Shown: positions 5,164 through 20,035, numbered from the stretch's first letter. The stretch is DNA of 64,000 nucleotides from Rhodocyclaceae bacterium (GCA_035565355.1 DATMSM010000044.1:7373-71372); one strand, 5' to 3'. Made by a program: numbers and translations. Notes: generated by a model not told the origin, from the sequence alone.

Positions 5164-5252
5164 GCCGATATCGTACCCATATTCGCGCGGCAGCGGCCGG
5201 GGCTGGGCGATAATGCACGTCGTAGCAACCCGCATCCCGATATGATTCAGGC

Positions 5253-6731
5253 ATGGAAATCGAATTCAAACTCAGCTGCACGCCCGATACCGCACAGGCA
5301 TTGGGCCGGCACCTGACCCGGCTGACCGGTGCCGCGCCGCACAAGCTGCAACTGCAGAACACCTATTACGACACCCCGAATCAGGACCTGCGGGCGCAGG
5401 GCATAGCCCTACGCATCCGCAAACAGGGCCGCCTCAAACTACAGACGGTCAAGTGCGCCGGCATCGTCAGCGGCGGGCTCAGCAGCCGGCCGGAGTGGGA
5501 AACTCCCTATAGCGGCCGCTTCGACTTCAATGCCGTCGATGTCGCCGAGGTACGCGATACGCTCGAAACCCTGGCGCACCTGCCAGGTTACCGCGCCACG
5601 CTGGACACCGACTTCAGCCGCCATGTCTGGCATTGGCGCCCAGAGGCAGACACCGATATCGAGATTGTCATCGATCGCGGCCGTATCGTCGCCGGCGCGC
5701 GCGAGGAAGCCATCTGCGAGATTGAGCTTGAGCTTGTCAGCGGCGAGCCCGCGCGACTGCTGGATCTGGTCGCTCTGCTGGGTACCGTGGCGCCGCTGTT
5801 TCCCGCGCCGCTGTCCAAGGCCACGCGCGGCAGCCGCCTGCTCTCCACTCCGCCCCCGCCCGCCCCTGTAACGGCAAGCCATGCGCAGCACTGTCACGCT
5901 GCCTTCAATGCGCTGGCTCAGGCCTGCCTCGACCATATCAGCATCAACCTGCCTGCCAACTGCACCTATTTCTCCGACGACAACCTGCACCAGGTACGCG
6001 TCGGGCTGCGCCATCTGCGCGCCCTGCTGCAGATGTTCCGCCCCCTGATGCGGGACGGCTGGCCGCGCAAGGCCATCGCAGATGGCGCGCGCCACCACAT
6101 GCAGGCCCTGGCTCACTCACGCGAGCTGCATGTGCTCCTGCATGAAGTCGTGACGCCGGCTGCAAACACGCTGGAGCCGCGTGCCGAACAGGCCTTGCGC
6201 AAGCAGCTCGACGCCATGCACAAGCGCGCCTTCGCCGCGGCCGAAACGCATCTGCTGACACAGACGTTTTCGACCTGGCTGCTGCATACCAGCCTGGCCC
6301 TGTACGCCCGCCCCCTGCGTCACAAGGCCGGTGCCCAGGCCTGGTCCCCCCAGGCACACGCGCTGGTCAGCAAGCGACTCACCGCCTATAACAAGCGGCT
6401 GAAACGCACCCAGCCCCGGCCCACGTCTCTGCACGCGCTACGCAAGCACGGCAAGCATCTGCGCTACCAGTTGGCGGTAAGCGCGCTGCATCCCGCTGCC
6501 GGCAAGGCCCTCGCACAACTGCAGGAAACCCTGGGCGGGCTCAACGATCTGCATGTCGCGGGTGACATCTTCGGACGCCTGCCGGCCACCCATGCGGATA
6601 GCATTGCGGACATCGCAAAATACCACCTGCCCCGCCATACCAAACTGCAGCTGCGCGCGGCAGACCAGCTCAAGCAACTGCGGCGCACATTGCACAAGCT
6701 GCCAGCCAAATCCGGGAAAAACCGCATATGA
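5253..6731 (+). CDS. CYTH (triphosphate tunnel) plus CHAD domain protein
   Basis: N-terminal MEIEFKL...EIELEL strand pattern is typical of CYTH. The long helical His/Arg-rich C-terminal half is typical of CHAD. Confidence 0.75.
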   Translation: MEIEFKLSCTPDTAQALGRHLTRLTGAAPHKLQLQNTYYDTPNQDLRAQGIALRIRKQGRLKLQTVKCAGIVSGGLSSRPEWETPYSGRFDFNAVDVAEVRDTLETLAHLPGYRATLDTDFSRHVWHWRPEADTDIEIVIDRGRIVAGAREEAICEIELELVSGEPARLLDLVALLGTVAPLFPAPLSKATRGSRLLSTPPPPAPVTASHAQHCHAAFNALAQACLDHISINLPANCTYFSDDNLHQVRVGLRHLRALLQMFRPLMRDGWPRKAIADGARHHMQALAHSRELHVLLHEVVTPAANTLEPRAEQALRKQLDAMHKRAFAAAETHLLTQTFSTWLLHTSLALYARPLRHKAGAQAWSPQAHALVSKRLTAYNKRLKRTQPRPTSLHALRKHGKHLRYQLAVSALHPAAGKALAQLQETLGGLNDLHVAGDIFGRLPATHADSIADIAKYHLPRHTKLQLRAADQLKQLRRTLHKLPAKSGKNRI

Positions 6732-7183
6732 ATCTGATCCTGTGGCGCCACGCCGAAGCAGAGGACATCGCGCCGGACCATAGCGACGTCAACCGACGCC
6801 TTACCGATCGAGGTCACAAGCAGGCGCAGAAAATGGGTGCCTGGCTGGACCAGCAGTTGCCTGCCGAGACGCGCATTCTGGTCAGCCCGGCACAGCGCAC
6901 GCGCCAGACCGCCGAGGCGCTCGGGCGCAAGTTCGAAATCGAGCCGCGCCTGTTTACCGATGCCGACGTCGGCCGCTACCTGGAAGCATCGGCCTGGGGC
7001 AGCAGCGATGAAACCCGGCTTCTGGTCGGCCACCAACCCACGCTGGGCCAACTGGCGGCCCTGCTCATGTGCGGCCAGCCGCTGCCGTGGTCGGTCAAAA
7101 AAGGTGCCATCTGGTGGCTGGCCTACGAAGGCACGCGCCAGCCGGCGCGCCTCATCTGCATGCTCGACAGCAAAACCCTCTGA
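6728..7183 (+). CDS. sixA: Phosphohistidine phosphatase SixA
   Basis: MNLILWRHAEAE...RRLTDRGHKQA is the RHG phosphatase motif. Size is about 150 aa. ATGA start/stop overlap with the preceding gene. Confidence 0.8.
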   Translation: MNLILWRHAEAEDIAPDHSDVNRRLTDRGHKQAQKMGAWLDQQLPAETRILVSPAQRTRQTAEALGRKFEIEPRLFTDADVGRYLEASAWGSSDETRLLVGHQPTLGQLAALLMCGQPLPWSVKKGAIWWLAYEGTRQPARLICMLDSKTL

Positions 7184-7191
7184 CACACTTT

Positions 7192-7857
7192 ATGCGCGAT
7201 ACCCTCATCTTCGATTTCGACGGCACTCTGATCGACTCGGCCCCCGGCATCCTCGCCACCTATGCCGAAGTGCTCTCCGCCGCCGGCATCACCCCGGCCG
7301 TGCCGCTGGATCAACACCTCATCGGCCCGCCGCTGCAACCCACCATGGAAAGACTGGTCGGTAATCGGCGCGATGACACCGCATTGCTGCAAGCCTTAGT
7401 TGAAGATTTCAAGCAGCGCTACGCCACCACCGGCGTCGCCCACACACCGGCCTACCCGGGGGCGGATGACACCCTGCGCATCCTGCGGGAACAGGGTTAC
7501 ACCTTGTACTTGGCAACCAATAAACGCGCCGAGCCAACGCTCGCCCTGCTAGAAAAGTTTCGCTGGCAAGCGCATTTTCAGCGGGTGTATTGCATAGACT
7601 CGCCGCAACCACCCTTCGCTGACAAGACGGCAATGCTGCAGCAACTATTACTGGAGAATGATTTGACTTCAGAACAGTGTCTGTATTTAGGTGATACTCG
7701 CGGCGACTATCTGTCGGCCACCGCCTGTAACATCGCCTTTGCGGCAGCGCTTTGGGGTTATGGCGATTGGCAAGATGCTCATGAAGCATCGGAGTTCATA
7801 CGAGGCCGGTACGAGCAGTTGTCCGACTTTTGCACCGCCCTAGGAAAAAAACAGTAG
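7192..7857 (+). CDS. HAD-family hydrolase (phosphoglycolate phosphatase-like)
   Basis: Motif I FDFDGTLIDS sits directly after the Met at 7192. The upstream ORF-track extension overlaps sixA and was not used. Confidence 0.8.
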   Translation: MRDTLIFDFDGTLIDSAPGILATYAEVLSAAGITPAVPLDQHLIGPPLQPTMERLVGNRRDDTALLQALVEDFKQRYATTGVAHTPAYPGADDTLRILREQGYTLYLATNKRAEPTLALLEKFRWQAHFQRVYCIDSPQPPFADKTAMLQQLLLENDLTSEQCLYLGDTRGDYLSATACNIAFAAALWGYGDWQDAHEASEFIRGRYEQLSDFCTALGKKQ

Positions 7858-7889: not shown

Positions 7890-8834
7890 TCAGTCGAAAT
7901 TGATTCTTTCCTGCTCAACCACGATCGGGCGCTTTTGCAGGTAGGTATGGATGGAGCCGACGTACTCGCCAAGAATGCCTATGAAAACCATTAGTACGCC
8001 GAACATGAAGAACATCCCGATCATGAGCGGCGCAATGCCCATAGGGAAGCGCTCCCAGAACAAAATCTTCGCCACTAGAAAAACCAGCGCCGCGAACAGG
8101 CTGAGCCCGCCGATCGCGAACCCGGCAAACGCCGCAAGCCGGATGGGCACCTTCGAATGGCTAATAATGCCTAGCATAGCGATGTCATATAAAGTGTAGA
8201 AGTTATTCTTCGAGATGCCACGTAAACGACGCGGTTGCTCGAACGGCACAGTTTTGATCTCATATCCCAACTCGCAGATAAGGCCGCGTACGAAAGGGTA
8301 AGGGTCGTCAATGGCGCGCAAATGATCGAGCACCTCTCGGTCATACAAGCCAAAGCCGGTAGAGTCGGCAACTAGCCGAATATCGGCAATTCGATTGAGA
8401 GAGCGGTAGTAGCTCTTGCGTATTGCATGTACCCAGGCGAACCCCCCCTGGGCTACCGGCTTTGTCGCCATGACGAGCTTATAGCCCTCCTCCCAGTGTT
8501 TGATGAACTGGGGAATCATCTCGGGCGGGTCTTGCAAGTCCGAAGCGAGATAAACGGTCGCCATGCCACGTGATTGCAAAACGCCGTAGTAAGGTGACCG
8601 GATATGACCGAAGTTACGGACATTCACAATGACCTTGACCATCGGATCAATGGCCGCCAAGCGCCTCAGCTTTTCGACGGTTCCATCCTGCGAATGATTG
8701 TCGATGAAAATGAGTTCGAAATCGTAATCGCAGACATTGAGGATCGCTGCCTTAATGCGGGTATACAGCTCGCCGACATTGTCTTCTTCGTTGTAGCATG
8801 GAGTAACGATGCTCAAAAGTTTGCGTTCAGTCAT
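7890..8834 (-). CDS. Family 2 glycosyltransferase, polyprenyl-phosphate sugar transferase type (GtrB/ArnC/CsbB-like)
   Basis: LSIVTPCYNEEDN and DNHSQDGT motifs, plus two C-terminal TM helices (LAAFAGFAIGGLSLFAALVFLVA and LMIGMFFMFGVLMVFIGILGEY), as in GtrB/ArnC. Confidence 0.85.
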   Translation of the reverse strand: MTERKLLSIVTPCYNEEDNVGELYTRIKAAILNVCDYDFELIFIDNHSQDGTVEKLRRLAAIDPMVKVIVNVRNFGHIRSPYYGVLQSRGMATVYLASDLQDPPEMIPQFIKHWEEGYKLVMATKPVAQGGFAWVHAIRKSYYRSLNRIADIRLVADSTGFGLYDREVLDHLRAIDDPYPFVRGLICELGYEIKTVPFEQPRRLRGISKNNFYTLYDIAMLGIISHSKVPIRLAAFAGFAIGGLSLFAALVFLVAKILFWERFPMGIAPLMIGMFFMFGVLMVFIGILGEYVGSIHTYLQKRPIVVEQERINFD

Positions 8835-9289
8835 GTCCGATCAGCTCCTCCGCCTTTGAAGGTAAATCTCTTATGCGCAAAATACGATACGCCTACGGTA
8901 ATAAGTATCGTCAAAGCCTGGGCCAGCCATACGCTCTGGCGTAAACCGTCAACCAGCGCCGTAAACAAGGCGATGCTCACGATGGACATGCCACCATAGG
9001 CAACATAGCAGCGGAGATACTCGCGCAGCCAGTTTCCGTGAGTCCGAAAGACGAAAAGCTTGTATGTCAGGAACGACATCGAGATCGCAAGCACATTGGC
9101 AATCAATGCGACCTCCCACGTTGCCAACTGCGGTGAGAGCTTAGCGTAAAGGAAAACGACGATGCCATATGCGAACGCGGTGTTCCACGCACCTGCAATT
9201 AGGTAGCGAACCGGCTGCCGCTGACTTGTGATTCCCAAGAGAATCGCCCCAATTTGCCTTATCCCTGCACAAAGCTTAGCGCGCCGCAT
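8831..9289 (-). CDS. GtrA-family small membrane protein (lipid-linked sugar translocase-like)
   Basis: About 150 aa with 4 TM segments. YLIAGAWNTAFAYGIVVFLY and a C-terminal FAHKRFTFK motif are typical of GtrA. Stop overlaps the GT2 start. The start is uncertain (9289 or 9322). Confidence 0.7.
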   Translation of the reverse strand: MRRAKLCAGIRQIGAILLGITSQRQPVRYLIAGAWNTAFAYGIVVFLYAKLSPQLATWEVALIANVLAISMSFLTYKLFVFRTHGNWLREYLRCYVAYGGMSIVSIALFTALVDGLRQSVWLAQALTILITVGVSYFAHKRFTFKGGGADRT

Positions 9290-10250
9290 CGGATAGTCCG
9301 GCCATTGTCCGGATGGCGTCATCCAGCGTATAGGAAAGAGTTAATTCCAGCTCGGCACGGGCTTTCGCAATTGAGGGCACATACCGATTGCGAAAGCTCT
9401 GCGCGGCAGGGTCAGGCGTTGCGGCAATCCGAACATCTTTTCCCGGAGCGACCAAATCGCGGACGAGATATGCGAGTTCTCGGATAGAAATGGCAGCGTC
9501 AGACCCAACGTTGTATGCCTGGCCCGCCCGTCCCCTGGACAGCAAAGCGTACAACCAATGAGCGAGGTCTCTTTGATCCATATATGAACGTATGGGCATG
9601 CCATCCCCATTGACAAGAATCTCTGGCGCCCCCAAGGCATCACGGACGAAATTCCCAATAGCAAAATGCACATCTTGAGGAAGGTCAGGCCCTGCAAAAG
9701 CAAAGCAACGCGCAATGACCGGCTCTAAATCGTGCTGGCTCTGGTAGAGCGCGCATAGGTGCTCTGCGCAACGTTTGGCGACGCTGTAAGCATGCTGGGC
9801 ATCAAGTGGATCCGGCATGCCGTTGTAGCTTTCGGGAATCTGCTCCATTTCCGGCGGCTGTGGGCCATACGCCCCCCCGGAACTCGTAAGGAGGAAGCGT
9901 CGGATACCACGAGACACGGCGTAGTCCAGCATATGGCGCGTGCCGTCCGCAATCTGCGTATAACGCTGCAATGACGTCAGGTTCGGCCCTAGCGTGGAAT
10001 CGGTAGCAGCGTGCAGAAGATGGGTGTAGCCGCTATCGCGGGGCAGCGTTTGCGGATCAAGAATGTCCCCCCGGTGGAAGCGCAGCCATGCATGCCCGGC
10101 GAACTCGGGGTGGCGCTCCAGAAAGACTTGCGGGGAGCGACTCAGCACCGTGACCGAGGGCGTCGCCATTCCGTGCTCGGCCAGCCCGCACCAGTGGCGT
10201 AACAAGGCCTTGCCGAAAAACCCCGTCCCTCCCGTCAATAGCAGCTTCAT
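9276..10250 (-). CDS. NAD-dependent epimerase/dehydratase-family SDR (candidate sugar ketoreductase/epimerase)
   Basis: MKLLLTGGTGFFGKALL Rossmann motif at the N-terminus and the YSVAKRCAE catalytic YxxxK. Start taken at 10250. Confidence 0.85.
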   Translation of the reverse strand: MKLLLTGGTGFFGKALLRHWCGLAEHGMATPSVTVLSRSPQVFLERHPEFAGHAWLRFHRGDILDPQTLPRDSGYTHLLHAATDSTLGPNLTSLQRYTQIADGTRHMLDYAVSRGIRRFLLTSSGGAYGPQPPEMEQIPESYNGMPDPLDAQHAYSVAKRCAEHLCALYQSQHDLEPVIARCFAFAGPDLPQDVHFAIGNFVRDALGAPEILVNGDGMPIRSYMDQRDLAHWLYALLSRGRAGQAYNVGSDAAISIRELAYLVRDLVAPGKDVRIAATPDPAAQSFRNRYVPSIAKARAELELTLSYTLDDAIRTMAGLSDAAR

Positions 10251-10275
10251 AGTCAGTGACGTCTCCGCGCTCATG

Positions 10276-11400
10276 TCAGCGTGAACGGGGAACGGCGTAG
10301 AGCACGGACTCAAAAGAGTTGAAGTAATGCTGACGAATGTAGAACGCGTAGTCGGGGCAAAGCTCGAACAACAACTCGGGCAGGGCCCAAGGGTCCTGCG
10401 GGTTATGGTAGAGCGACATGGTCAGCACGGGGCGGCAGCGTTCGATGGTACGGCGCGCGCCGTCCAGCACCTGGGCCTCCGCCCCTTCCACATCCAACTT
10501 GATGAGATCGACCTGAATCTGCGGCAGCATCTGATCAAGCGCCACGGCAGCGATGTGGATATCGCCATGCACGCCGATCTGGCCGCCTTCGCCCTGCCCT
10601 GAACTAAAGGTCAGGATGGAATACTTGTCGGCCGCCGCCAAAGGCAGGCAGATTGCCTGCGGATGCCGCACACGGATATTGCCGGTCAGGGTATCGAAAT
10701 TACCGGGGTCGGGTTCGAGCAGGAAAGCCTGTGTGCAATGGATATCGGGCTGGCTTACCAAATCAGAAAAGGTATCGCCGGTATACGCGCCGCAATCCAC
10801 GTAAGTGATGGGCTTTTTGCTCAGCGAGTGTAAGGTGATCTCATTGAAATACTGCTTTTCCTCAGAGCAGAAGCTGGCAAATGGAAGATCCAGCCCAAGG
10901 CGGAAGGCGGCCATGCGCAACAGAATGTCGCGACTCTCCTGATCCGCTAGCCGCTCGGCCACACGTGCCATGCGCTCAAGCCCGGAAATAAGGAAGTCCC
11001 GTTTGCTTAACCAGAAGCGCCAGCCCAGTTCCTGCGAGTACGCATCATATGTATCCCAGGGCATGAGCATCTGCGAAAACCCGGCCTTGGCGGCGATTGA
11101 CACCAGCTCGTCAAAAGGCGTGGCCCGGTTGAGAATCCCGAGCGCTAACTGAGAGGCCTTGTCCTTATGCGCGAGCGTAGGCCAGTCGACCACCGGCAGA
11201 TCGGAAACGCTGCCAATCTTGGGGGCTGTCTCGACAAAACCCGCCACCTGGATGCCATTCCCCTGCATGGCCCGACACAGACTTCGGCCAAAGTTACCGG
11301 CGCCGAAAATCCAGATCGGACGTGCCGCATCAATCTGTGCTGCAGGCCTTGCCGCAGCTGCGGCCAACTGGGAGAAATTAGCGTAGGGAAGCATGTTCAT
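10276..11400 (-). CDS. FkbM-family SAM-dependent methyltransferase with an N-terminal Rossmann-like domain
   Basis: YVDCGAYTGDT and LIKLDVEGAE motifs are typical of FkbM. N-terminal IFGAGNFG. ATGA overlap with the upstream ThDP enzyme gene. Confidence 0.75.
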   Translation of the reverse strand: MNMLPYANFSQLAAAAARPAAQIDAARPIWIFGAGNFGRSLCRAMQGNGIQVAGFVETAPKIGSVSDLPVVDWPTLAHKDKASQLALGILNRATPFDELVSIAAKAGFSQMLMPWDTYDAYSQELGWRFWLSKRDFLISGLERMARVAERLADQESRDILLRMAAFRLGLDLPFASFCSEEKQYFNEITLHSLSKKPITYVDCGAYTGDTFSDLVSQPDIHCTQAFLLEPDPGNFDTLTGNIRVRHPQAICLPLAAADKYSILTFSSGQGEGGQIGVHGDIHIAAVALDQMLPQIQVDLIKLDVEGAEAQVLDGARRTIERCRPVLTMSLYHNPQDPWALPELLFELCPDYAFYIRQHYFNSFESVLYAVPRSR

Positions 11401-13223
11401 GCATGAGCCGGCGTGGCAGAGACGGCTCGGATGGCCGCCGCCTCCTCGCGGATACTGTCGAGCTCGGCTGTCTGCAGGAAGGGATGCATGTCATCAAGTT
11501 CCGGGGTGATGAACTTACCGTCTTCGCCGACGCGGGACTTGATGCGCGGCACGAACTCCTGACGGGGATCGACATGCAGATCGATCAGCAGTGGGCCATC
11601 CTGCGCGAGCAACTCATCGAACTGCGCAAAATCCGCTTCGGTAGCAATGGAAGCAGCCCTCAGCCCGTAGGCACTGGCAACTGCAGCATAGTCCGGGAAC
11701 TCCACACCGGAATCGGGGGTTGCTCCAATGACGCGGCCGAAAAAGTTTTCATGCGTCTGCCAGATGGACAGATAGCCGCTATTGTTGAGCACGATCACAA
11801 CGACGTTCAGGCCGCTTGTCTTCAGCGTCTGCAGTTCCTGAATATTCATCTGCAGGCTACCGTCGCCGGCAAAGCAAATGACTCTCCGCCCGCCGCTAGC
11901 CCGTGCAGCGACCGCTGCGCCAAGGGCCGCAGGCAAATCATAGCCCATCGAGGCCGAGCCAGAGTTGCTGAACAAGCGCTGGTCTTTTTGCAAAGTCCCG
12001 ACCTGGAAAGGCAGGATGCAGGCAGAAGCGTTACCGGAGACGACGATATCGTCGGACCGCATTTGCTTGAATATGCGCTCAACCATGAGGTATGGATTCA
12101 AAGGCGCATTCGGAATCTGGCGATGCTCGTTCGAGGCTTTGTATTTCACGCCTATCTTCTGGCACCACTGCGCCCACGGCCGATAATCGGGCAGCTTGAC
12201 GGATGCAAGTTCATTTTCGAGCACATCCAGGAAAGCGGATAGATCCGCCTCCACTGTGAAGTCGACCTTGATTGTGGGCTTGTTCAATTCCACAGGGTCG
12301 ATATCGACCTGTGCCACCCAGGCATTCTTGGCGAACGCATCCCAGTTGTAGCTGGTCTGGCGAATATTGAGTCGAGAACCGAGAACGAGAACAAAGTCGG
12401 CATTCTGCAGACAGAAGTTACCGGCACGTGTACCGATGGTACCCGGTCGCCCCGCAAAGAGCGGGTGATCGGAAGCAATCAGATCGTGGGTCCAGGCGGT
12501 GGTTAGCGGGATGCCGAGGCGCTCGATGAGCGACAGCAGGCGACCTTCCGTCTTAGACAGCCGCACCCCCGTGCCGCCCAAAATCAGGGGACGATGGCTG
12601 AGCTTTAGCTTTTCCAGAATGCTGCGGCAAGCTTGCGGCAAAGACTGTGATGCGCGAGGCTGGGGCGCTTGTGGTTTCGGAATGTCGATCTGGATGGTGG
12701 ACTGCTGAATATCCAGGGGAATGTCGAGCCACGCCGGCCCCGGACGCCCCGACGTAGCCTCGATGAATGCGCTGGGCAGAGCGGACACGAGGTCTTGCTC
12801 ATCGCGGACAAGATGCGCAAATTTACAGGCCGGGGCCGCCATCGCGATGGTCGGCCCTTCCTGATCGCCCAGCTGTCTCAGTTGAGGCAGATCGTAGAAA
12901 GACACACAGGTCTCACGCTTGATTTGCCCCGACAGAATGAGCATCGGGATGGAGTCGGTAAACGCCCCAAAAACACCGTTGAGCGCATTGATCGAGCCCG
13001 GCCCTGAGGTCAACATGACGACTGCGGGCTTACCCATAATCCGCGCATAGCCTTCGGCGGCCATCGCGCAAGCCTGCTCGTGGTGCATGAAGGTACATTG
13101 CAGCCGGGGATGCCCCCCCAACGCCTGGTTGAGAAACATGGCGCCGCCGCCGGTGACAGTAAACACCTGCTCGATGCCGCGCTCAACGAGCCAGTCGGCA
13201 ATTTGCTCCGAAATACGCTTCAT
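11397..13223 (-). CDS. Thiamine-diphosphate enzyme of the acetolactate-synthase family (YerE-like candidate)
   Basis: 608 aa. N-terminal ThDP pyrimidine-binding region (VFTVTGGGAMFLNQAL...HEQACAMAAEGYAR) and C-terminal GDGSLQMNIQELQT...NN ThDP/Mg motif. Confidence 0.85.
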   Translation of the reverse strand: MKRISEQIADWLVERGIEQVFTVTGGGAMFLNQALGGHPRLQCTFMHHEQACAMAAEGYARIMGKPAVVMLTSGPGSINALNGVFGAFTDSIPMLILSGQIKRETCVSFYDLPQLRQLGDQEGPTIAMAAPACKFAHLVRDEQDLVSALPSAFIEATSGRPGPAWLDIPLDIQQSTIQIDIPKPQAPQPRASQSLPQACRSILEKLKLSHRPLILGGTGVRLSKTEGRLLSLIERLGIPLTTAWTHDLIASDHPLFAGRPGTIGTRAGNFCLQNADFVLVLGSRLNIRQTSYNWDAFAKNAWVAQVDIDPVELNKPTIKVDFTVEADLSAFLDVLENELASVKLPDYRPWAQWCQKIGVKYKASNEHRQIPNAPLNPYLMVERIFKQMRSDDIVVSGNASACILPFQVGTLQKDQRLFSNSGSASMGYDLPAALGAAVAARASGGRRVICFAGDGSLQMNIQELQTLKTSGLNVVVIVLNNSGYLSIWQTHENFFGRVIGATPDSGVEFPDYAAVASAYGLRAASIATEADFAQFDELLAQDGPLLIDLHVDPRQEFVPRIKSRVGEDGKFITPELDDMHPFLQTAELDSIREEAAAIRAVSATPAHA

Positions 13224-14333
13224 TCAAAGTCCACGATTCAAAATAAGGCTCTTCAAAGCCACGTTTTCGCTGTACGGACCATCGATGTGATTGATCGTCA
13301 AACGCTCATCCGCCTTGATCGGCGCCTGCAGCTTTTCGCCGTTCATCACTTCCCGGCATGAGAGTTGCCCCTTATGCAGAGGCACCGCAAGGTAGAAGTC
13401 CTTCTCAAAATCATCCTTGTTGAAGACGTAGCCGACATCAAGGTCGCGACGCGCATACGCACCACGAACCAACGCGTCCAGATACTCCGTCTCCTTGCGC
13501 GTGATAACGCGCCGGCTATCGCTCACACCGCCGCACATTTCCTTGGCCTTATGAAAAGCCTTGAACCAGACGTCGCATTGTTCGGGAAGCGAACAATAAG
13601 AAGAAACCGCAACCCCTTCGTAGTTGATGTCGATATGACGCTCCCAGGTCCGTGCTCCCTTACCGTAGGAGATCAGCATGGAAGAGTGCCAATCGTGGTA
13701 TTCGTGAGTGGAAAGGCCGATTACATGATTCGGATAGCGCTTGCGCAGATAGTCGACCTGATCAAGACAGAGCTCGGAGTCCTCGCTGGGATAGAGGGAG
13801 ACGCAATGATTGATGGCCAGCGGAATATCCCGCTTCTCGAAAAAACGGACCATGTCGTCGAGATCCTTTTCCGAAGCGCCGCCTGTGGAAACAATCGTCG
13901 GCCGGCGAGTAGAGGCAATCTTTTCGATCAGCATCCAGTCATTCATGTCCGAACTCGCGATCTTGATGATCGGCATGTCGAACTCCACGCACAGGTCGAC
14001 AGAAGCCTCGTCAAACGGCGTAGACATGGGAATGCATCCGACATTCCTGACCTCTTCCACCATACGAAAAAACTCAGCCTTGGAAAGCTTAGTGTCTTCC
14101 GTTTTCTTTATATACCGCAGCTCGGTATTGCCCTTGAACTCAGGATGGACAAACTCGTCCACATCGCGGAACTGTAGCTTTATCGCGGCCTTCACATTGT
14201 TGTAGCGGACAATGGCACCATGGTCGCGAACAATCTTCAAGCCCCGTTCCAGCTTGCCCCAATGGTTATTGGCCAACTCAAGCACGAAAAGATTCTCGAA
14301 CAAATCTTTATCACGTTGACTGGTGGTGCGCAT
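13224..14333 (-). CDS. N-acetylneuraminate synthase (NeuB/SpsE) family protein with a C-terminal SAF-like domain
   Basis: The ELANNHWG motif corresponds to the NeuB (I/A)ExxxNHxG motif, followed by IKIASSDMND. Size 369 aa. No neuA or neuC partner is in the window. Confidence 0.65.
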   Translation of the reverse strand: MRTTSQRDKDLFENLFVLELANNHWGKLERGLKIVRDHGAIVRYNNVKAAIKLQFRDVDEFVHPEFKGNTELRYIKKTEDTKLSKAEFFRMVEEVRNVGCIPMSTPFDEASVDLCVEFDMPIIKIASSDMNDWMLIEKIASTRRPTIVSTGGASEKDLDDMVRFFEKRDIPLAINHCVSLYPSEDSELCLDQVDYLRKRYPNHVIGLSTHEYHDWHSSMLISYGKGARTWERHIDINYEGVAVSSYCSLPEQCDVWFKAFHKAKEMCGGVSDSRRVITRKETEYLDALVRGAYARRDLDVGYVFNKDDFEKDFYLAVPLHKGQLSCREVMNGEKLQAPIKADERLTINHIDGPYSENVALKSLILNRGL

Positions 14334-14467: not shown

Positions 14468-15808
14468 CTAGAAGCCCACCCCGAAGAAGGACTCCAGTTT
14501 TTCAACGGTAAAATCAAGCATTTCCCGGCTCAGTCCGGGAAAAACACCCAACCAGAAAGTCCGATTCATCACGACATCCGTATTGGTCAAGGTACCGCTC
14601 ACCCTGAAGTTCCTACCCATCATGTAAGGCTGTCTTGTCAAATTCCCCGCGAACAATAGACGAGTGCCTATCTTGTTCTGCTCAAGGAAATTGATGAGAT
14701 CGACACGATCAACACCAGCACCCTCCTTTAGCACCAACGGAAACCCGAACCAGGACGGCTCTGAGTTCGGCGTTGCCTCGGGCAGATGCAGGAATTCGGC
14801 ACAGCTTTGCAGGCGCTCCTTGAGATAGGCAAAATTGGCGCGGCGCTGAGCAATGAAATCCTTCACACGATCCATCTGCGCCAAAGCACATGCCGCCTGC
14901 ATGTCCGAGATCTTCAGGTTGTAGCCCAGATGACTATAGGTGTACTTGTGGTCATAGCCCTCAGGCAGATCCCCCAACTTCCAGCAAAACCGCTTGTTGC
15001 AAGTGTTGTCCTTGCCCGGCTGACAGTAGCAATCCCTTCCCCAGTCGCGGAAAGACTCGGCAATTGTCTTAAGTTCCGCGTTATTGGTGAATACCGCGCC
15101 ACCTTCACCCATGGTGATGTGGTGCGCAGGGTAAAAACTCAAGGTTGCAATATCACCGAACGTGCCGACCAATTCTCCGCCATAGGTCGCCCCAAGCGCA
15201 TCACAACAATCCTCGACCAACCACAGATTGTGCTTTTTGCACAACGCAGTAACCACGTCCAGGTTGAAGGGATTCCCCAGACTATGCGCCAGCATGATGG
15301 CTTTGGTCTTGGGCGAAATAGCCGCTTCGATCTTGCTGGCATCGATATTGTGAGTCGCCAAGTCAACGTCGACAAACACAGGCACTGCGCCGAATTGCAG
15401 AATGGGATTCACGGTCGTCGGGAAGCCCGCCGCGACGCCAATAACTTCGTCGCCGGGTTTGATGGCGCGCTCACCCAGCTTGGGGCTCGTCAAGGTGCTG
15501 AAGGCAACAAGATTTGCCGAAGAGCCGGAGTTGACCGTTATCACATACTTCACGCCCAGGAACTGCGCGAGACGTTCCTCAAACATCGCGTTAAAGCGCC
15601 CGGTCGTCAGCCAGCCATCCAATGATGCCTCGACCATGAGCTGTAGCTCTTTGGCGCCGATCACCTTGCCCGATACCGGTATCGGTGTTTGCCCAGGAGC
15701 AAAGGGCTTTGGCGCATAAGCGATATCAGCATATTGTTGAACCAGATCGGCGATCTGGACACGCAACTTTTCGAGTTGCGCTTGAGAAGAAACGTTGGCG
15801 CTCGTCAT
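14468..15808 (-). CDS. rfbH: CDP-6-deoxy-4-keto-hexose 3-dehydrase (E1, RfbH/DdhC type)
   Basis: DegT-fold protein in which the PLP lysine position reads [14 protein letters not shown] (His instead of Lys). A C-X57-C-X1-C-X7-C spacing (DCC...[13 protein letters not shown]) was counted in the translation. Start taken at MTSANV (15808). Confidence 0.88.
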
Positions 15809-16875
15809 AGGGACTCGGTGTATTGGGAAACTTGTTCCAGGCACAGCGCACGCATATCGTGGCCCTGCAGCCATGCACGATGCCACTCAGCAACGCGTGT
15901 CAGGGCGGTTTCCAGATTCCAGCGCGGCGACCACTGCAATCGCTGACGCGCCTTGGAAATATCCAGCTTTAAGAAGCCCGCTTCATGCGGATGCTCTCCA
16001 TTTTGCGGTATCCAAGTGGCGTTATTGCCCCACGCCGTGCACAAGCGCTCGACGATCCACTGCACCGACTGGGCGTCCTCGTCACGCGGGCCGAAATTCC
16101 AGCTCTCGGCAAAAGCCTGGCCTTGTTCATGCAGACGCTCGGCCAGTACGAGATAGCCGGAAAGTGGCTCCAACACATGCTGCCATGGGCGAACCGCATG
16201 CGGATTCCTGAGCTGCACAGACTCTTGGCGCTCCAAGGCGCACAGAATATCCGGCACCAGCCGGTCTGCCGCCCAGTCGCCGCCGCCGATGACATTGCCA
16301 GCACGCGCGGTTGCCATCGCAATCCCCGCCTCTTTCAGGAAGGAGTTGCGATAAGCGCTGCTGACCAGTTCCGCACACCCCTTGCTGCTCGAGTAGGGAT
16401 CATAGCCACCGATGGGCTCGTTTTCTCGATAGCCCCAGACCCATTCACGGTTTTCGTAGCACTTGTCGGTCGTGATATTGACGATGGCCCGCACGGAAGC
16501 GGTATGGCGCGCGGACTCCAACACATGCGCTGTTCCCATCACGTTGGTGGCATACGTTTCAAGTGGCTGCTGATATGACTGTCGGACTAAAGGCTGCGCC
16601 GCCATGTGAATCACGATTTCTGGCTGGAACTCACGGACCAAGGACTGCAGCAAAGAAAAATCGCGGATGTCTGCAATGCAGTGATCCATCCCTTCCGCCA
16701 CGTTCGCTACCCGGAACAATGCAGGCTCGGTAGGCGGCGCCAAAGCGACACCGCGTACGATAGCCCCCATGCTCTGCAACCACAGGCTAAGCCAGCTTCC
16801 CTTGAAGCCGGTGTGCCCCGTTAAAAGAACCCGCCTGCCCCGCCAGAATTGCGGACGAACTTGAGCGGAGCTCAT
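15805..16875 (-). CDS. rfbG: CDP-glucose 4,6-dehydratase
   Basis: [18 protein letters not shown] and YSSSKGCAE motifs. ATGA-type overlaps with both rfbF and rfbH. Confidence 0.9.
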
Positions 16876-17642
16876 TCCCAGACTTTCCAGGGCGCCTTGC
16901 CCGACGCCCATAGCTCTTCCAGATGACTCTTGTCGCGCAGCGTATCCATGGGCTGCCAGAAGCCATGATGCAGGTAGGCGCTCAACTGCCCCTCCCTTGC
17001 GAGCCTATCCATCGGCTCCTTCTCCCATGCCGTGTCATCGCCATCAATGTAGTCCAGCACCTTGGGCGACAGAGCGAAGAAGCCCCCATTGATCCACGCT
17101 CCATCTCCCTGAGGCTTTTCCTGAAAGCGGCTTACCTTGCCTTCGCTCAGGACTAGAGCGCCGAAGCGACCAGGGGGCTGAGTTGCCGTCAATGTCGCCA
17201 GACAACCTTTTTCCTTGTGAAAAGCCAACAGTTTGGAAATATCGACATCTCCGACTCCATCACCGTAGGTACAGCAAAAATCCTCCTCCCCGAGGTAGGG
17301 GCGCAGCCTTTTGATCCGTCCCCCTGTCATCGTGTCATCCCCGGTATCGACCAGCGTCACCCTCCAGGGCTCCGCGTTGTTGTGATGCACTTCCATCTTG
17401 TTCTTCGCCATATCGAAGGTCACGTTCGACATGTGCAGAAAATAGTTCGCGAAGTACTCCTTGATTACATAGCTCTTGTAACCCAGGCAAATAATGAACT
17501 CATTGACTCCGTGGGCGGAATAGATCTTCATGATGTGCCACAGAATGGGTTTCCCACCCACCTCCACCATGGGTTTAGGCTTCACCGAAGTTTCCTCGCT
17601 AATACGAGTCCCCAAGCCTCCCGCTAAGATCACTGCCTTCAA
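16872..17642 (-). CDS. rfbF: Glucose-1-phosphate cytidylyltransferase
   Basis: [18 protein letters not shown]...[20 protein letters not shown] is very characteristic of RfbF/DdhA. 256 aa. Confidence 0.92.
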
Positions 17643-17757: not shown

Positions 17758-19596
17758 ATGACCAAATATCCAACAAGCCAGCACTTGATGCCATGGGCAG
17801 GGTATCTGTGTGCACTCGCCGTTCTGGAAATCACGTTCGGCAGATTTTTTTCTCCGGCACACACGGTGGGCCACGACTACGCAACTGCCATGCCAGGGCT
17901 ACTGGATGGCTACTACTGGTTCCTGAATAACGGCATCAGCACCCCACCTTGGTTCACCCCCGCCTTCTGCGCTGGTGTCCCACTTTTTTCCGATCCGCAA
18001 TCACTCTTCTACTCCCCCATACAATTCTTCGCCTTCTTCGCGGATCCGCTGAGGGCCTCCCACCTGGCCTTGCTCGCCTATTCGAGCCTAGGCTATCTGG
18101 GCATGTACCTGCTATGTCGGCAACGACTCGGGCTGTCGACCGCAGCCTCGATCTTTGCCGCCTTGCTGTGGATGCTAAACGGTTTTGTTACGCATCGCAT
18201 GATCATCGGCCATATTGGATTTCTCGGCATCAGCCTGATCCCTCTGCTCACCTACCTTCTCCTCTCGACTTCCACCTCCAAGCCAACCAAAGCCCTATGC
18301 ATAACAGGCGCCGGCATTCTCCTGGCCAGTTGGGTGCATTCCGGACTTGGTACGCTATTGATCGCCGCAGCGCTCTCCGTCTGGGGGTTAATCTGTATCG
18401 CCGTCATCCGCGGGGCGCCGGCTCGCGCAGCATACTTGAATAGCGTAGCAGCGGCGACTCTTGGACTCGGCCTCTCCGCATCCAAGCTCGCGGCGACCAT
18501 CAGCACCATGAGCAATCTGGAACGAACCATGTATCCCTTGCCCGGCTTTGCTTCTGTCGGCGACCTATTACTGGCCTCGTTCAGCACCATGATGCTGCCC
18601 AGCAGCCTGGCACAGCCTATGGCCTGGCCGCTTGTACACAATGCCAAGATCTACTTGGATATACATGAATGGACGTTAAACATTACGCCCATTCCATTCG
18701 CGCTCATCCTGCTTGCCGTACTGGTATCGCTCATTCGCAAGCAATCGCAGCCACTCGCCCGCCCTGCACCATCGGCGCTGAGCCATACACTGCTTCTACT
18801 ATTGATCCTATTCATTTCGCTGGCGGTGCAGTTTTATTCCCCTGGCTGGAATGCCTTTCTCAAGACCGCGCCTATCCTTAAATCGATTTCGACGCCGACA
18901 CGCTGGATGGTGCTCTGGCTGCCCATCGTCTGCGTAGGCGCTGCCATCTCACTCAATTACCTTTGCGCGCTGACGCGCAGAAAGGCCGCATGGCAAGCCG
19001 GTAGCTCACTGCTACTGTGCGTTGCTGTCAGCCTGCTGGTTTATACAGAACCGCGCCCCTACTACGAAAACCAGGGCTATGATCCGAACCCCGTTATCGG
19101 AGCCTTCGAACAAGCCAGTCGGCCAGGATTCAAGCCACACCTGGATAGGCTGGGGGCCTATATTGATTCAGCGGGCAATGTCATCTCTCCTCTGTACCGC
19201 AACAATCTTTTTATTGAGGGCGTATCCCAAGCCTTCTGTGCGAACCCGATTTTTGGTTATTTCCTTGAAGCCTACGATCCCAAAGACCTGGCGCCCGGCA
19301 GTCTTTTGAAGACACTTCCATCCGGCCATTTAAACGTTAAGAATCCGGCCTGCTATACCTTCCCGACCGAGAATCATTGCCGACCCGGCGACCATTTCCT
19401 GCCTCAGAATATTGAAGCCGCACAACGTTTTACCAACTACCAGCAGTGGGCGTTTGTACGCCCTGTCAAACAGAGCGTGTGTGATGGCCTCACGCTCGCG
19501 AGCGTCATACTCAGCTTGGGGATACTCCTGATTTGCGGCCCCCTTACCGTGCTGAAAAGTGCCCGATTCTGTTGCCCGCCGCAGCCCCCGAAGTGA
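17758..19596 (+). CDS. Large polytopic membrane protein, candidate GT-C-type (YfhO/Gtr-type-specific-like) glycosyltransferase
   Basis: 612 aa with at least 10 hydrophobic segments and a soluble C-terminal part. It diverges from the sugar operon that encodes GtrA and the GtrB-like GT2. The functional assignment rests on context only. Confidence 0.5.
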   Translation: MTKYPTSQHLMPWAGYLCALAVLEITFGRFFSPAHTVGHDYATAMPGLLDGYYWFLNNGISTPPWFTPAFCAGVPLFSDPQSLFYSPIQFFAFFADPLRASHLALLAYSSLGYLGMYLLCRQRLGLSTAASIFAALLWMLNGFVTHRMIIGHIGFLGISLIPLLTYLLLSTSTSKPTKALCITGAGILLASWVHSGLGTLLIAAALSVWGLICIAVIRGAPARAAYLNSVAAATLGLGLSASKLAATISTMSNLERTMYPLPGFASVGDLLLASFSTMMLPSSLAQPMAWPLVHNAKIYLDIHEWTLNITPIPFALILLAVLVSLIRKQSQPLARPAPSALSHTLLLLLILFISLAVQFYSPGWNAFLKTAPILKSISTPTRWMVLWLPIVCVGAAISLNYLCALTRRKAAWQAGSSLLLCVAVSLLVYTEPRPYYENQGYDPNPVIGAFEQASRPGFKPHLDRLGAYIDSAGNVISPLYRNNLFIEGVSQAFCANPIFGYFLEAYDPKDLAPGSLLKTLPSGHLNVKNPACYTFPTENHCRPGDHFLPQNIEAAQRFTNYQQWAFVRPVKQSVCDGLTLASVILSLGILLICGPLTVLKSARFCCPPQPPK

Positions 19597-19852: not shown

Positions 19853-20035
19853 ATGGCCAAAAAAACCCAGCGGGGTTTTACTCTGATTGAGCTGATGATC
19901 GTAGTTGCCATCATCGGCATCCTGGCTGCGATTGCCATCCCGCAATTCAGCGAATACACCAGGAAGGGCGAGAACAAGGCGGCTCAGTCCGACACTCGCA
20001 ACATCCTGACGCAAGCCATCGCCAACAGCCAATAA
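19853..20035 (+). CDS. Truncated type IVa prepilin (PilA-N-like, alpha-1 helix only)
   Basis: MAKKTQRG|[24 protein letters not shown] has the class III signal with Gly-1, Phe+1 and Glu+5. The mature part is only 52 aa. A GGAG Shine-Dalgarno lies 7 nt upstream of the ATG. Confidence 0.85.

Follow-up and report, generated by a model that had tools for sequence, protein, structure and literature searches.

The operon described herein, which is widely conserved among bacteria, probably builds a methylated 3,6-dideoxy sugar, as yet undescribed, that carries a long side chain. It resides in a 64,000-nucleotide stretch of DNA from a Rhodocyclaceae bacterium, called the window below. We lean modestly toward the view that the locus is a variant of the pathway for acyl-branched 3,6-dideoxyhexoses (the YerE/ErwE “unifying scheme”), wherein a NeuB-like enzyme replaces the aldolase. 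In our best reading, the acyl-branched-sugar pathway is the known part, and the new part is a NeuB-family donor synthase in the aldolase's place.

Positions 9276 to 14333 are filled by four open reading frames, all on the minus strand, which confirms the existence of the four genes recognized in a first-pass annotation of this DNA. In their order on this strand, they code for a NeuB-like synthase, a ThDP-dependent enzyme, an FkbM-family methyltransferase, and an extended SDR. The genes rfbF, rfbG, and rfbH precede this set within a tightly packed operon, and the close coupling claimed earlier is evident from the junctions: the NeuB-like and ThDP genes are separated by 0 nt, the ThDP and FkbM genes overlap by 4 nt, and the FkbM/SDR junction and those of the rfb genes abut or overlap. 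The sole loose junction is the 134 nt between rfbH and the NeuB-like gene. The annotation had placed the ThDP gene first among the four, which is wrong because the NeuB-like gene comes first. It also ended the set at the SDR gene and overlooked four others. Specifically, the operon continues past the SDR gene with genes for a GtrA-like protein (8831..9322, minus strand), which overlaps both of its neighbors, and a GtrB-like GT2 enzyme (7890..8834, minus strand). It is flanked by genes for a HAD phosphatase (7192..7857, plus strand, convergent with the operon) and a polytopic membrane protein with a GT-C fold (17758..19596, plus strand, divergent from rfbF). These genes belong to the cassette as well, and their presence indicates the mode of sugar delivery.

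The early steps of the predicted pathway can be assigned with the greatest ease. The product of rfbF/ddhA (16872..17642, minus strand) matches the equivalog model for glucose-1-phosphate cytidylyltransferase, the maker of CDP-glucose (TIGR02623, 467 bits versus a cut-off of 300), and that of rfbG/ddhB (15805..16911, minus strand; alternative start possible at the ATG at 16875) matches CDP-glucose 4,6-dehydratase (TIGR02622, 516 bits versus a cut-off of 278). The product of rfbH/ddhC (14468..15811, minus strand) corresponds to E1, the PMP- and [2Fe-2S]-dependent CDP-4-keto-6-deoxyglucose 3-dehydrase (NF011936, 756 bits; 720 bits against the Yersinia E1 structure 3bcx/3bb8). Its Schiff-base Lys is replaced by His ([14 protein letters not shown]), and it keeps the Fe-S motif C203-x57-C261-x-C263-x7-C271. 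Given this strong homology, RfbF, RfbG, and RfbH are predicted to turn glucose-1-phosphate into CDP-4-keto-3,6-dideoxy-D-glucose. The E3 reductase gene ddhD was not found in the 64-kb window and was found in only one NeuB-type locus, so a general reductase is presumably the electron source for E1. That E1 needs electrons, yet E3 is missing, counts against our best reading.

We collected 80 related NeuB-type loci and counted gene co-occurrence in the 55 that have at least 3 kb on both sides. These 55 loci span many phyla. All of them carry a ThDP gene, and most also carry rfbH (48/55), rfbF (45/55), and rfbG (44/55). Both the NeuB-like and the ThDP gene were found in 72 loci, and in 44 of these they are immediate neighbors. 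This arrangement of NeuB-like, ThDP, and rfbFGH genes is far beyond chance. The earlier suggestion that the NeuB-like enzyme is an extra tailoring activity is not borne out, since this enzyme and the ThDP enzyme are obligate partners (55/55 loci). Five loci additionally carry DHQ-synthase-like and FGGY-like genes.

The ThDP-dependent carboligase (11397..13223, minus strand; 608 aa) contains all three TPP_enzyme domains and is related to JanthE and ErwE. Among structures in the PDB, it scores best against JanthE (8rph, 305 bits, about 32% identity), followed by AHAS I (239 bits) and PpYerE (229 bits). Phylogenetic placement was conducted by neighbor joining with only three characterized references, JanthE and PpYerE among them, and one AHAS outgroup. 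Here, the ThDP enzymes linked to NeuB-like genes come out as a clade of their own with 99% bootstrap support, and this clade joins JanthE with 100% support, away from the PpYerE clade and AHAS I. By these comparisons, the enzyme is neither an acetolactate synthase nor of the YerE type, but belongs to a NeuB-linked clade allied to JanthE. Ketones and 4-hydroxy-2-oxovalerate are both accepted by JanthE as substrates (PMC12188165). The gene for JanthE lies in the context rfbFGH-JanthE-SDR-DmpF-like-DmpG-like, an ErwE-type cluster in which the last two genes form an aldolase pair for 4-hydroxy-2-oxovalerate. This DmpG/DmpF-like pair occurs only in two JanthE-type loci (L090 and L091); neither the window nor any of the 80 NeuB-type loci has it. 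No other pyruvate aldolase occurs among the gene families common to at least five of the 80 NeuB-type loci.

The NeuB-like PEP-condensing synthase (13224..14333, minus strand; 369 aa) is recognized by PF03102 with 122 bits. Its best PDB match is 3g8r (200 bits), a protein whose function is undescribed, and true NeuB structures reach 83 bits. The positions matching NmNeuB E25, K53, Q55, T110, K129, S132, S154, Y186, S213, H215, E234, and H236 are conserved in 76 to 77 of 77 aligned family members, while three pocket positions, those matching E134, N184, and D247, are D, S, and S. With the roles reported for these residues in the NmNeuB structure, the protein keeps the NeuB TIM-barrel domain along with its metal-binding pair of His residues and its PEP-binding site. 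Its AlphaFold model is of low confidence (pLDDT 62). The SAF-like tail reported in the first-pass annotation finds its sole basis in the alignment with 3g8r, which extends through residue 342, whereas Pfam shows no SAF match.

Close relatives of this protein (57 to 88% identity) occur in many phyla, and some sources label the protein a sialic acid or pseudaminic acid synthase. We rejected its assignment as a true PseI or NeuB, given that it misses both equivalog cut-offs (110.6 versus 340 bits for PseI; 99.5 versus 400 bits for NeuB). The earlier claim that NeuA/NeuC-type partners are lacking holds: no CMP-nonulosonate synthetase, NeuC, or PseB/C/F/G/H was found in the window as far as it was annotated, nor in the gene families that the 80 related loci have in common. 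More distant relatives (33 to 40% identity) carry a fused cupin domain that resembles sugar isomerases, and one of these (P0307) carries a HAD domain in addition. These cupin-fused proteins constitute a different NeuB-like subfamily from the window enzyme, a point against our best reading. Most likely, the NeuB-like enzyme of the cassette supplies the keto-acid donor for the ThDP enzyme.

There is published precedent for such a division of labor, wherein an aldolase provides a 4-hydroxy-2-oxo acid, and CDP-4-keto-3,6-dideoxyglucose is modified with it by a ThDP enzyme resembling YerE and by a reductase (PMC9306805). In the pathway that we propose, the NeuB-like synthase would take the place of the aldolase as donor maker by condensing PEP with a common aldose, probably phosphorylated, to yield a 3-deoxy-2-ulosonate. 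Chemically, a 3-deoxy-2-ulosonate is a 4-hydroxy-2-oxo acid. The HAD phosphatase would strip the phosphate at some stage of the pathway, and the ThDP enzyme would decarboxylate the keto acid and add the resulting acyl-anion equivalent to the C-4 ketone of CDP-4-keto-3,6-dideoxyglucose. This addition would create a tertiary alcohol bearing a polyhydroxylated acyl branch. The extended SDR would then reduce the branch ketone in the manner of YerF and ErwF, and the FkbM enzyme would methylate the product, probably on oxygen. The length of the side chain is set by the identity of the aldose, which cannot be read from the sequence. Ulosonic acids of at least six carbons exist mostly as cyclic hemiketals and in that form are poor ThDP donors, a consideration that counts against this scheme.

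The associations with HAD, cupin-isomerase, and DHQS-like proteins point to chemistry on free sugar phosphates. The HAD protein is a type IA, phosphoglycolate-phosphatase-like enzyme predicted to act on sugar phosphates (PF13419, 88.9 bits), and it falls under the cut-off of the PGP models (92 versus 180 bits). Its homologs occur in 24 of the 55 loci and adjoin the NeuB-like gene in 12 loci. The presence of this gene in only 44% of loci, and its convergent position outside the operon in the window, also count against our best reading.

Two further enzymes are expected to finish the sugar. The extended SDR (9276..10313, minus strand; likelier start at the ATG at 10274) has an NDP-sugar-binding domain (PF01370, 116 bits) and intact TGGTGFFG and YSVAK motifs, and in the PDB it is most similar to UDP-glucuronate decarboxylase and dTDP-glucose dehydratases. 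We propose that it is the reductase of the side-chain ketone. It shares only 29% identity with the SDRs of the JanthE cluster, which also counts against our best reading. The SAM methyltransferase (10276..11400, minus strand; 374 aa) matches the FkbM family (PF05050, 53.7 bits; TIGR01444, 61.9 bits) and, among PDB entries, 2py6 best. About 190 aa at its N terminus form an additional domain, and the N terminus gives a weak NeuD-like match. The SDR gene recurs in 32 of the 55 related loci and the FkbM gene in 29, and further loci carry methyltransferases of other types.

It is necessary to weigh this scheme against other explanations. A model built on the first-pass annotation is that a YerE-like ThDP enzyme adds a small unit (C2 from pyruvate, formyl, or glycolyl) at C-4, after which the NeuB-like enzyme extends the side-chain carbonyl with PEP to give an acidic elongated branch, and the SDR and FkbM enzymes finish the product. 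The ThDP enzyme does belong to the YerE superfamily, the genes for CDP-4-keto-3,6-dideoxyglucose are present, JanthE also accepts pyruvate in vitro, and the constant NeuB-like/ThDP linkage fits either order of action. However, the ThDP enzyme falls outside the PpYerE clade, and the acetyl branch derived from pyruvate would be a ketone, whereas NeuB-type enzymes use an aldehyde. This explanation also fails to account for the HAD phosphatase, the cupin/HAD fusions, the DHQS-like variants, and the mutual exclusion of NeuB-type and aldolase-type loci, and we consider it unlikely. The first-pass interpretation stands in part: YerE/YerF-like branching of CDP-4-keto-3,6-dideoxyglucose by the ThDP enzyme and SDR is supported, as is the view that the ThDP enzyme is no true acetolactate synthase, but the YerE-type use of a C2 unit and the supernumerary role of the NeuB-like enzyme are not. 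We regard as about equally unlikely another order of events, in which the NeuB-like enzyme adds C-3 of PEP straight to the C-4 ketone of the CDP-sugar to form a pyruvyl-methyl branch, as in shewanellose, the ThDP enzyme removes CO2 from this sugar-bound 2-oxo acid to leave an aldehyde, and the aldehyde is reduced by the SDR. This order would suit a NeuB-like gene that immediately precedes the ThDP gene without a gap, as well as the strict linkage of both genes to each other and to rfbFGH. It is also favored by the existence of sugars, such as shewanellose, whose C-4 branch derives from a three-carbon keto acid. Nevertheless, we know of no NeuB-family enzyme that uses a ketone or a nucleotide sugar, the nearest characterized ThDP relative is a carboligase acting onto ketones rather than a simple decarboxylase, and the associated HAD, cupin-isomerase, and DHQS-like proteins speak for chemistry on free sugar phosphates.

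The remaining alternatives assign the two key enzymes to separate or ordinary roles. One possibility is that two unrelated pathways are co-located, with the NeuB-like enzyme leading to a Neu/Pse/Leg nonulosonic acid and the ThDP enzyme and SDR leading to yersiniose. The Pfam NeuB domain match and the database labels mentioned above would agree with this idea, but the scores far under the PseI and NeuB cut-offs, the lack of CMP-transferase and NeuC/PseBCFGH partners in the window as far as it was annotated and in the gene families common to the related loci, and a ThDP linkage across phyla that is unexpected for independent pathways make it very improbable. There is a negligible chance that the ThDP enzyme is an ordinary acetolactate/acetohydroxyacid synthase for branched-chain amino acids. 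Although AHAS families provide its top-scoring NCBIfam models, all AHAS equivalog cut-offs are widely missed (best 315 versus 538 bits), JanthE outscores AHAS I, no regulatory small subunit adjoins the gene, and its neighbors code for sugar enzymes. Moreover, more than 50 loci have the ThDP gene within a sugar operon.

Returning to the donor-synthase scheme, the finished sugar would be moved from CDP onto undecaprenyl phosphate by the GtrB-like GT2, and the lipid-linked sugar would be flipped with the help of the GtrA-like protein. The divergent GT-C transferase would then attach the sugar in the periplasm, with either the neighboring short pilin or an exported glycan as a possible acceptor. 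The GT2 resembles GtrB, ArnC, and PgfS, which are polyprenyl-phosphate glycosyltransferases (PF00535, 90.5 bits; 172 bits for the PgfS model and 96 bits for that of ArnC, neither reaching its cut-off). Its sequence ends in two hydrophobic segments, and its homologs (47 to 78% identity) occur in 26 of the 55 NeuB-type loci. The GtrA-family protein is a small membrane protein and putative flippase (PF04138, 56.9 bits). The putative periplasmic transferase gave no Pfam or NCBIfam match. Its AlphaFold model (pLDDT 93.5) has the GT-C enzymes STT3, DPY19, AglB, Pmt4, AftB/D, EmbB, PglB, and ArnT as top PDB matches in Foldseek (probability about 1, E values of 4e-4 to 8e-2, TM scores of 0.3 to 0.46). 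Judged from family matches and this predicted fold, a Gtr/Arn-type set of GT2, GtrA-family, and GT-C proteins is encoded together in the window. Homologs of the GT-C protein adjoin GtrA/GtrB genes in L085 and in L087 to L089. The complete trio is found together in L085 and L089, the arrangements in L087 and L088 are related, and the whole architecture is present in L087, a metagenomic locus.

Directly 3′ of the GT-C gene lies a gene for a type IV pilin-like protein (19853..20035, plus strand; 60 aa; N_methyl motif, 44 bits). Pilin or pilus genes adjoin GT-C homologs in only some loci, including L085 and L089. On the basis of adjacency, we tentatively name the short pilin as a candidate acceptor of the GT-C transferase. 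The cassette also occurs directly upstream of fliC-flaG-fliD-fliS-fliT. In Pseudomonas and Comamonadaceae, with P. putida NBRC 14671 as one carrier, it neighbors fliC together with large cytoplasmic glycosyltransferases. Given its location beside fliC, the cassette sugar probably decorates flagellin in these bacteria. Our search of the literature found no glycan from any cassette-carrying organism, and we know of none.

A broader proposal is possible, though we hold it with somewhat less than even confidence. It states that a NeuB-family enzyme was recruited away from nonulosonic acid formation to a wholly different task, the making of a phosphorylated 3-deoxy-2-ulosonate from PEP and an aldose phosphate of central metabolism solely as a donor for the ThDP enzyme. 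The products would be methylated 3,6-dideoxy-4-C-(polyhydroxyalkyl)hexoses of at least 11 carbons. If true, these compounds would be methylated higher sugars of a class not seen before, placed by more than 12 phyla on flagellin, on type IV pilins, or on glycans of the envelope, and JanthE-like enzymes would gain a physiological context.

Among known systems, the cassette resembles the erwiniose genes ErwE/ErwI/ErwJ/ErwF of Pectobacterium atrosepticum and the JanthE cluster of Janthinobacterium sp. HH01, in which genes for CDP-4-keto-3,6-dideoxyglucose are followed by those for a ThDP carboligase and one or more SDRs. No solved structure is closer to the window ThDP enzyme than that of JanthE, although the two belong to separate clades. 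A 4-hydroxy-2-oxo acid donor made by an enzyme of the same cluster is a shared feature, proposed in the case of the window. In the erwiniose and JanthE systems, this donor is provided by a DmpG/DmpF-type pyruvate aldolase and acetaldehyde dehydrogenase, whereas the window has a NeuB-family PEP-dependent synthase and no aldolase. The window cassette also goes beyond these systems in its FkbM methyltransferase, HAD phosphatase, and Gtr-type delivery. Yersiniose A formation by YerE/YerF in Yersinia pseudotuberculosis (PpYerE, 5ahk) likewise involves ThDP-dependent branching at C-4 of CDP-4-keto-3,6-dideoxyglucose and subsequent reduction of the branch ketone. In contrast, YerE uses pyruvate to add a C2 branch, the PpYerE clade differs from that of the window enzyme, and yersiniose clusters contain ddhD (E3), which the window lacks. 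Long polyhydroxylated branches have been proposed to derive from hydroxylated 2-oxo acids for caryophyllose (aldolase MMAR_2331 and ThDP enzyme MMAR_2332 of Mycobacterium marinum) and for Rhodopseudomonas palustris CGA009, whose cluster includes a SAM methyltransferase as in the window. The caryophyllose donor maker, MMAR_2331, is of the aldolase/citrate-lyase family rather than NeuB-type, a comparison made by description only.

The predicted delivery set parallels the Gtr and ArnC/ArnT systems, which combine a GT2 that loads polyprenyl phosphate with a GtrA-family protein and with a GT-C enzyme for transfer outside the cytoplasm. It also recalls TfpW, the membrane glycosyltransferase classed as GT-C that modifies type IV pilins during pilin arabinosylation in Pseudomonas aeruginosa. 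Unlike these systems, the GT-C protein of the window has no family in Pfam or NCBIfam, the donor would be a CDP-activated branched sugar, and the acceptor is putative. Finally, the proposed donor branch resembles KDO formation (KdsD-KdsA-KdsC) and the synthase-phosphatase pairs for KDN-9-P and Neu5Ac-9-P, in which PEP and an aldose phosphate yield a 3-deoxy-2-ulosonate phosphate that is dephosphorylated by a HAD enzyme. The window HAD protein, of the PGP-like type IA, differs in type from KdsC. The three-step KDO/KDN logic is echoed by the NeuB-like relatives that carry fused isomerase-like and HAD domains. However, the ulosonate of the KDO and KDN pathways is CMP-activated and used whole, whereas that of the window would be decarboxylated and grafted onto another sugar.

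The gene encoding the NeuB-like protein (14333..13224, minus strand; 369 aa) stands first of the four genes that follow rfbFGH. It is succeeded on the same strand by genes for a ThDP enzyme (13223..11397; 608 aa, with all three TPP domains present), an FkbM-family methyltransferase (11400..10276; 374 aa) and an extended SDR, which starts at 10313 or, more likely, at 10274 and ends at 9276. Open reading frames and domain profiles bear out the gene families named in the first-pass annotation, although its gene order, with the ThDP gene first, was wrong. The four-gene unit it described stands, but the operon is larger than claimed: past the SDR gene it continues with a GtrA-family gene (9322..8831, minus strand) and a gene for a GtrB/ArnC/PgfS-like GT2 protein (8834..7890, minus strand). 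It is flanked by a convergent gene for a HAD-IA phosphatase (7192-7857, plus strand) and, divergent from rfbF, by a gene for a 612-aa polytopic membrane protein (17758-19596, plus strand), here called the GT-C protein. The preceding minus-strand genes rfbF (17642..16872), rfbG (16911..15805) and rfbH (15811..14468) reach NCBIfam equivalog-level scores. Junctions between operon genes are gaps or overlaps of 0 to 4 nt; only the rfbH/NeuB-like junction is wider, at 134 nt. A promoter and terminator scan of 7-20 kb returned fewer sites than shuffled sequence and is thus uninformative.

Databases contain over 8000 relatives of the NeuB-like protein, and the best 120, apart from the window's own sequence, are 81-88% identical to it; the identical copy is annotated as derived from a Rhodocyclaceae MAG. 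A scan taking one genome per species yielded 80 loci with a homolog at 57-88% identity, spread over Alpha-, Beta- and Gammaproteobacteria, Acidimicrobiales, Acidobacteriota, Anaerolineae, Verrucomicrobia, Planctomycetia, NC10, Bacteroidales, Saccharibacteria, Bacillota, Elusimicrobia, among other groups. Clustered at 50%, the family is essentially one full-length cluster. When the 55 loci with 3 kb or more of sequence on each side were searched by tblastn, a ThDP enzyme was found near the NeuB-like gene in every one (55/55), followed in frequency by rfbH (48), rfbF (45), rfbG (44), SDR (32), FkbM (29), GtrB-like GT2 (26) and HAD (24, under half). Across all 80 loci a ThDP gene is present in 72, and in 44 of these it directly adjoins the NeuB-like gene; a HAD gene does so in 12 loci. 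Unbiased clustering of neighboring ORFs added further methyltransferases, SDRs, a flippase-like protein and another polytopic membrane protein.

The NeuB-like protein scores well under the PseI and NeuB equivalog cut-offs, and matches the uncharacterized Chromobacterium protein 3g8r at 200 bits, compared to 83 bits for true NeuB. In NmNeuB numbering, E25, H30, Q55, T110, K129, S132, S154, Y186, S213, H215, E234 and H236 are invariant in 77/77 members, and the position of K53 is conserved in 76/77. In NmNeuB, this set includes the histidine pair that binds the metal and the residues that bind PEP. At the positions of E134, N184 and D247, the family instead carries D, S (A in 8 members) and S. 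With the metal and PEP residues kept and these three positions changed, the protein would seem able to condense PEP, but to have an acceptor pocket of another kind. A search of the window's annotated part, and of the families common to the related loci, showed neither a CMP-transferase nor a NeuC/Pse partner. The SAF-like tail named in the first-pass annotation gave no Pfam match, and the alignment to 3g8r runs to residue 342; the AlphaFold model (pLDDT 62), built on a shallow alignment whose members are all more than 80% identical, was set aside. The candidate phosphate-binding residue at the NmNeuB N74 position (R, N, T or S) follows no clear pattern with the presence of a HAD gene.

The partner ThDP enzyme misses every AHAS cut-off (best 315 versus 538). 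Among solved structures its best match is the carboligase JanthE (8rph, 305 bits), ahead of Escherichia coli AHAS I (239) and PpYerE (5ahk, 229), and for every member of the main group of NeuB-linked ThDP enzymes the JanthE score exceeds those to AHAS I and PpYerE. A neighbor-joining tree (32 taxa, 589 columns, 100 bootstraps) was calculated, for which the PpYerE and AHAS I sequences were rebuilt from PDB alignments and full-length JanthE was taken from a protein search. The NeuB-linked enzymes form one clade (99%), which groups with JanthE and two minor types at 100%, while the PpYerE clade (81%) is separate. This placement outside the PpYerE clade, in a tree with few references (JanthE, PpYerE and E. 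coli AHAS I), speaks against the YerE-type identity originally assigned. JanthE is described as YerE-like with a CDG motif, accepting ketones, long 2-oxo acids and 4-hydroxy-2-oxovalerate, and its physiological substrates are given as unknown (PMC12188165).

What might a PEP-condensing enzyme contribute to sugar branching? Condensation of PEP with an aldehyde gives a 3-deoxy-2-ulosonate, which belongs to the same class as a 4-hydroxy-2-oxo acid donor. In the published scheme for such sugars, a ThDP enzyme adds the branch to CDP-4-keto-3,6-dideoxyglucose, a reductase and sometimes a methyltransferase follow, and a 4-hydroxy-2-oxo acid donor is needed (PMC9306805). Given this match between donor class and product class, we propose that the NeuB-like enzyme substitutes for the aldolase, producing the ulosonate donor from PEP and an aldose. 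The ThDP enzyme would add the branch to the CDP-sugar, the SDR would then reduce the branch ketone and the FkbM enzyme would methylate the product. The solved relatives of the SDR are NDP-sugar C-4 enzymes, and the N-terminal domain of the FkbM protein weakly resembles the nucleotide-sugar-binding part of NeuD. Branch length would depend on the aldose, with glyceraldehyde-3-P giving C5, erythrose-4-P C6 and pentose-5-P C7. Longer ulosonates cyclize and are poor ThDP donors, which counts against the proposal. Two other orders of action would put the NeuB-like enzyme elsewhere in the pathway. In one, the ThDP enzyme acts first and the NeuB-like enzyme after it, which we consider improbable; in the other, the NeuB-like enzyme acts directly on the sugar ketone, a course that seems no more probable. 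We retain donor synthesis by the NeuB-like enzyme as the working proposal.

Three features suggest that the aldose substrate is phosphorylated. One is the recurring HAD gene, often beside the NeuB-like gene, although its presence in under half of the loci is a weakness. In proteins at 33-40% identity (P0302, P0304, P0307 and P0320), the NeuB-like part is fused to a cupin, a D-lyxose-isomerase-like domain; P0307 additionally has a C-terminal HAD_2 phosphatase, and P0338 has a GT2 domain. This arrangement mirrors the logic of KdsD-KdsA-KdsC. In addition, five loci (L089, at 4174-7387, L032, L016, L082 and L069) carry DHQ-synthase-like and FGGY-like genes near the NeuB-like gene, and L089 also carries a classical short-chain dehydrogenase. 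DHQ-synthase-family enzymes act on phosphorylated 3-deoxy-ulosonates, and this sub-variant hints at phosphate elimination or cyclization of the ulosonate, perhaps leading to caryophyllose-like or carbocyclic side chains. Clustering of the neighboring ORFs of the related loci turned up no family of kinases, epimerases or aldolases that might supply a special aldehyde. A class II aldolase gene in the window (27598-28413), considered as a source of the aldehyde, has a counterpart in none of them, and so was rejected as part of the system.

The supply of the CDP-sugar is a weak point of the proposal in one respect. RfbH matches the crystallized Yersinia E1 dehydrase at 720 bits, keeps His in place of the Schiff-base Lys and contains the C-x57-C-x-C-x7-C iron-sulfur motif. 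This [2Fe-2S] motif is intact although no gene for the E3 reductase (ddhD/ascD) occurs across the whole 64 kb window, and E3 was found in just one NeuB-type locus. In contrast, ddhD is present in JanthE-type and YerE-type loci such as L091. E1 requires a reductase, and general ferredoxin or flavodoxin reductases are able to serve related dehydrases.

The GT-C protein matches no Pfam or NCBIfam family. Its AlphaFold model (pLDDT 93.5, 42-sequence alignment) has STT3, DPY19, AglB, Pmt4, AftB, AftD, EmbB, ALG9, PglB and ArnT as structural neighbors. GT-C glycosyltransferases make up most of the top neighbors and all of those with probability near 1 (E values of 4e-4 to 8e-2, TM 0.3-0.46). Together, the GtrB-like GT2, GtrA and GT-C proteins would constitute a classic polyprenyl-phosphate-sugar route. 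GT-C homologs accompany GtrB and GtrA in L085, with pilB, pilC and pilin genes near, and in L089, where they lie after the NeuB-ThDP cassette and before pilB/pilC and pilins. L088 has the homolog with GtrA and, nearby, a GT2 domain fused to an SDR. In L087 the homolog and rfbFGH-GtrA-GtrB are transcribed divergently and NeuB-ThDP-FkbM is adjacent, so that the overall architecture matches that of the window.

Directly 3' of the GT-C gene lies a type IV pilin-like gene (19853-20035, plus strand; 60 aa), whose product extends ~52 aa past the cleavage motif G|FTLIELM. Geobacter PilA-N is about the same length. It is followed by a gene for a small secreted protein (20053-20400, plus strand; 115 aa) that starts with a hydrophobic, signal-peptide-like segment and is rich in Ser and Thr at its C-terminus, and the two look like a split-pilin arrangement. 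Modification of type IV pilins by a membrane glycosyltransferase has a precedent in TfpW. Pilin motifs occur close to the GT-C gene in the window and to its homologs in L085 and L089; none were found near the homologs in L086-L088, nor in the 80 NeuB-type loci. Pilin was thus dropped as a general acceptor, and for the same reason the window's own pilin as acceptor is a tentative guess. In several Pseudomonas loci (L001-L003, L007, L010-L012 and L015), rfbFGH-NeuB-ThDP-FkbM-SDR lies immediately upstream of fliC-flaG-fliD-fliS-fliT, accompanied by GT2 proteins of 900-1190 aa. Flagellin genes are also near the cassette in L009 (Acidovorax) and L006 (Xylophilus). From gene order, the Pseudomonas cassette is probably a flagellin glycosylation island, which suggests that flagellin is glycosylated with the same sugar.

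The surrounding region from ~8 to 28 kb has a GC content of 0.53-0.60, compared to 0.62-0.65 in the flanks. The window's only tRNA genes, at 32.4 and 40.2 kb, are away from the island edges, and the NeuB-like gene found no match among plasmids, phages or complete E. coli genomes. Also in the region is a gene for a 1127-aa protein (21167-24550, plus strand) that has TPR repeats at its N-terminus and a GT9-like (heptosyltransferase-like) module in two repeats; similar TPR proteins, matching GT9 or GT41, are encoded next to GT-C homologs in L086 and L087 and next to the JanthE cluster in L090. An ABC-2-like permease, an ABC ATPase and Methyltransf_23 (~20448-21266, 25362-26288 and 26306-27115, all plus strand) look like a module for ABC-type glycan export, which might provide the acceptor polymer, and have a counterpart in none of the related loci. 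Outside the island are genes for a 1173-aa CHASE-PAS-PAS hybrid histidine kinase with a receiver domain (1714-5235, minus strand) and a CYTH-CHAD protein (5253-6731, plus strand), for which no link to the sugar locus was seen.

The cassette occurs in at least 80 species of many phyla. If the proposal is correct, it is the signature of a family of long-branched bacterial sugars not described before, and offers sugar chemists a sequence-based predictor of their occurrence. The "unifying scheme" for acyl-branched sugars would gain a second route to the donor keto acid, one that is PEP-driven and therefore irreversible, and the sialic-acid-synthase fold would have a new role. For biocatalysis, it would provide a new clade of ketone-accepting ThDP carboligases along with a matched donor-generating enzyme. 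Surface filaments such as the neighboring flagellins and pilins are recognized by hosts, phages and immune receptors. The searchable literature, which mostly excludes subscription papers, held nothing relevant tying NeuB-type synthases to ThDP branching or flagellin glycans, which is weak evidence of novelty. The general branching logic is already published; the obligate pairing with a NeuB-family synthase did not turn up in that searchable literature.

The closest known comparison is the JanthE locus of Janthinobacterium sp. HH01 (L090). There, rfbF-rfbG-rfbH precede the JanthE gene (10001-11833), which is followed by genes for an SDR, an acetaldehyde-dehydrogenase-like protein, a 4-hydroxy-2-oxovalerate-aldolase-like protein, a second SDR and a glycosyltransferase. 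This architecture is that of ErwE/ErwI/ErwJ, published for erwiniose (PMC9306805), and by analogy points to an erwiniose-like sugar as the natural product of JanthE. The aldolase pair recurs in a locus of Pseudomonas extremaustralis, which also contains ddhD, a second ThDP gene that is YerE-like, and a gene of the FkbM family. The pair was found neither in the window nor in any NeuB-type locus, and the two cluster types are thus mutually exclusive. Aldolase-type (JanthE/erwiniose) and NeuB-type clusters nevertheless share the same CDP-sugar genes and use related ThDP enzymes.
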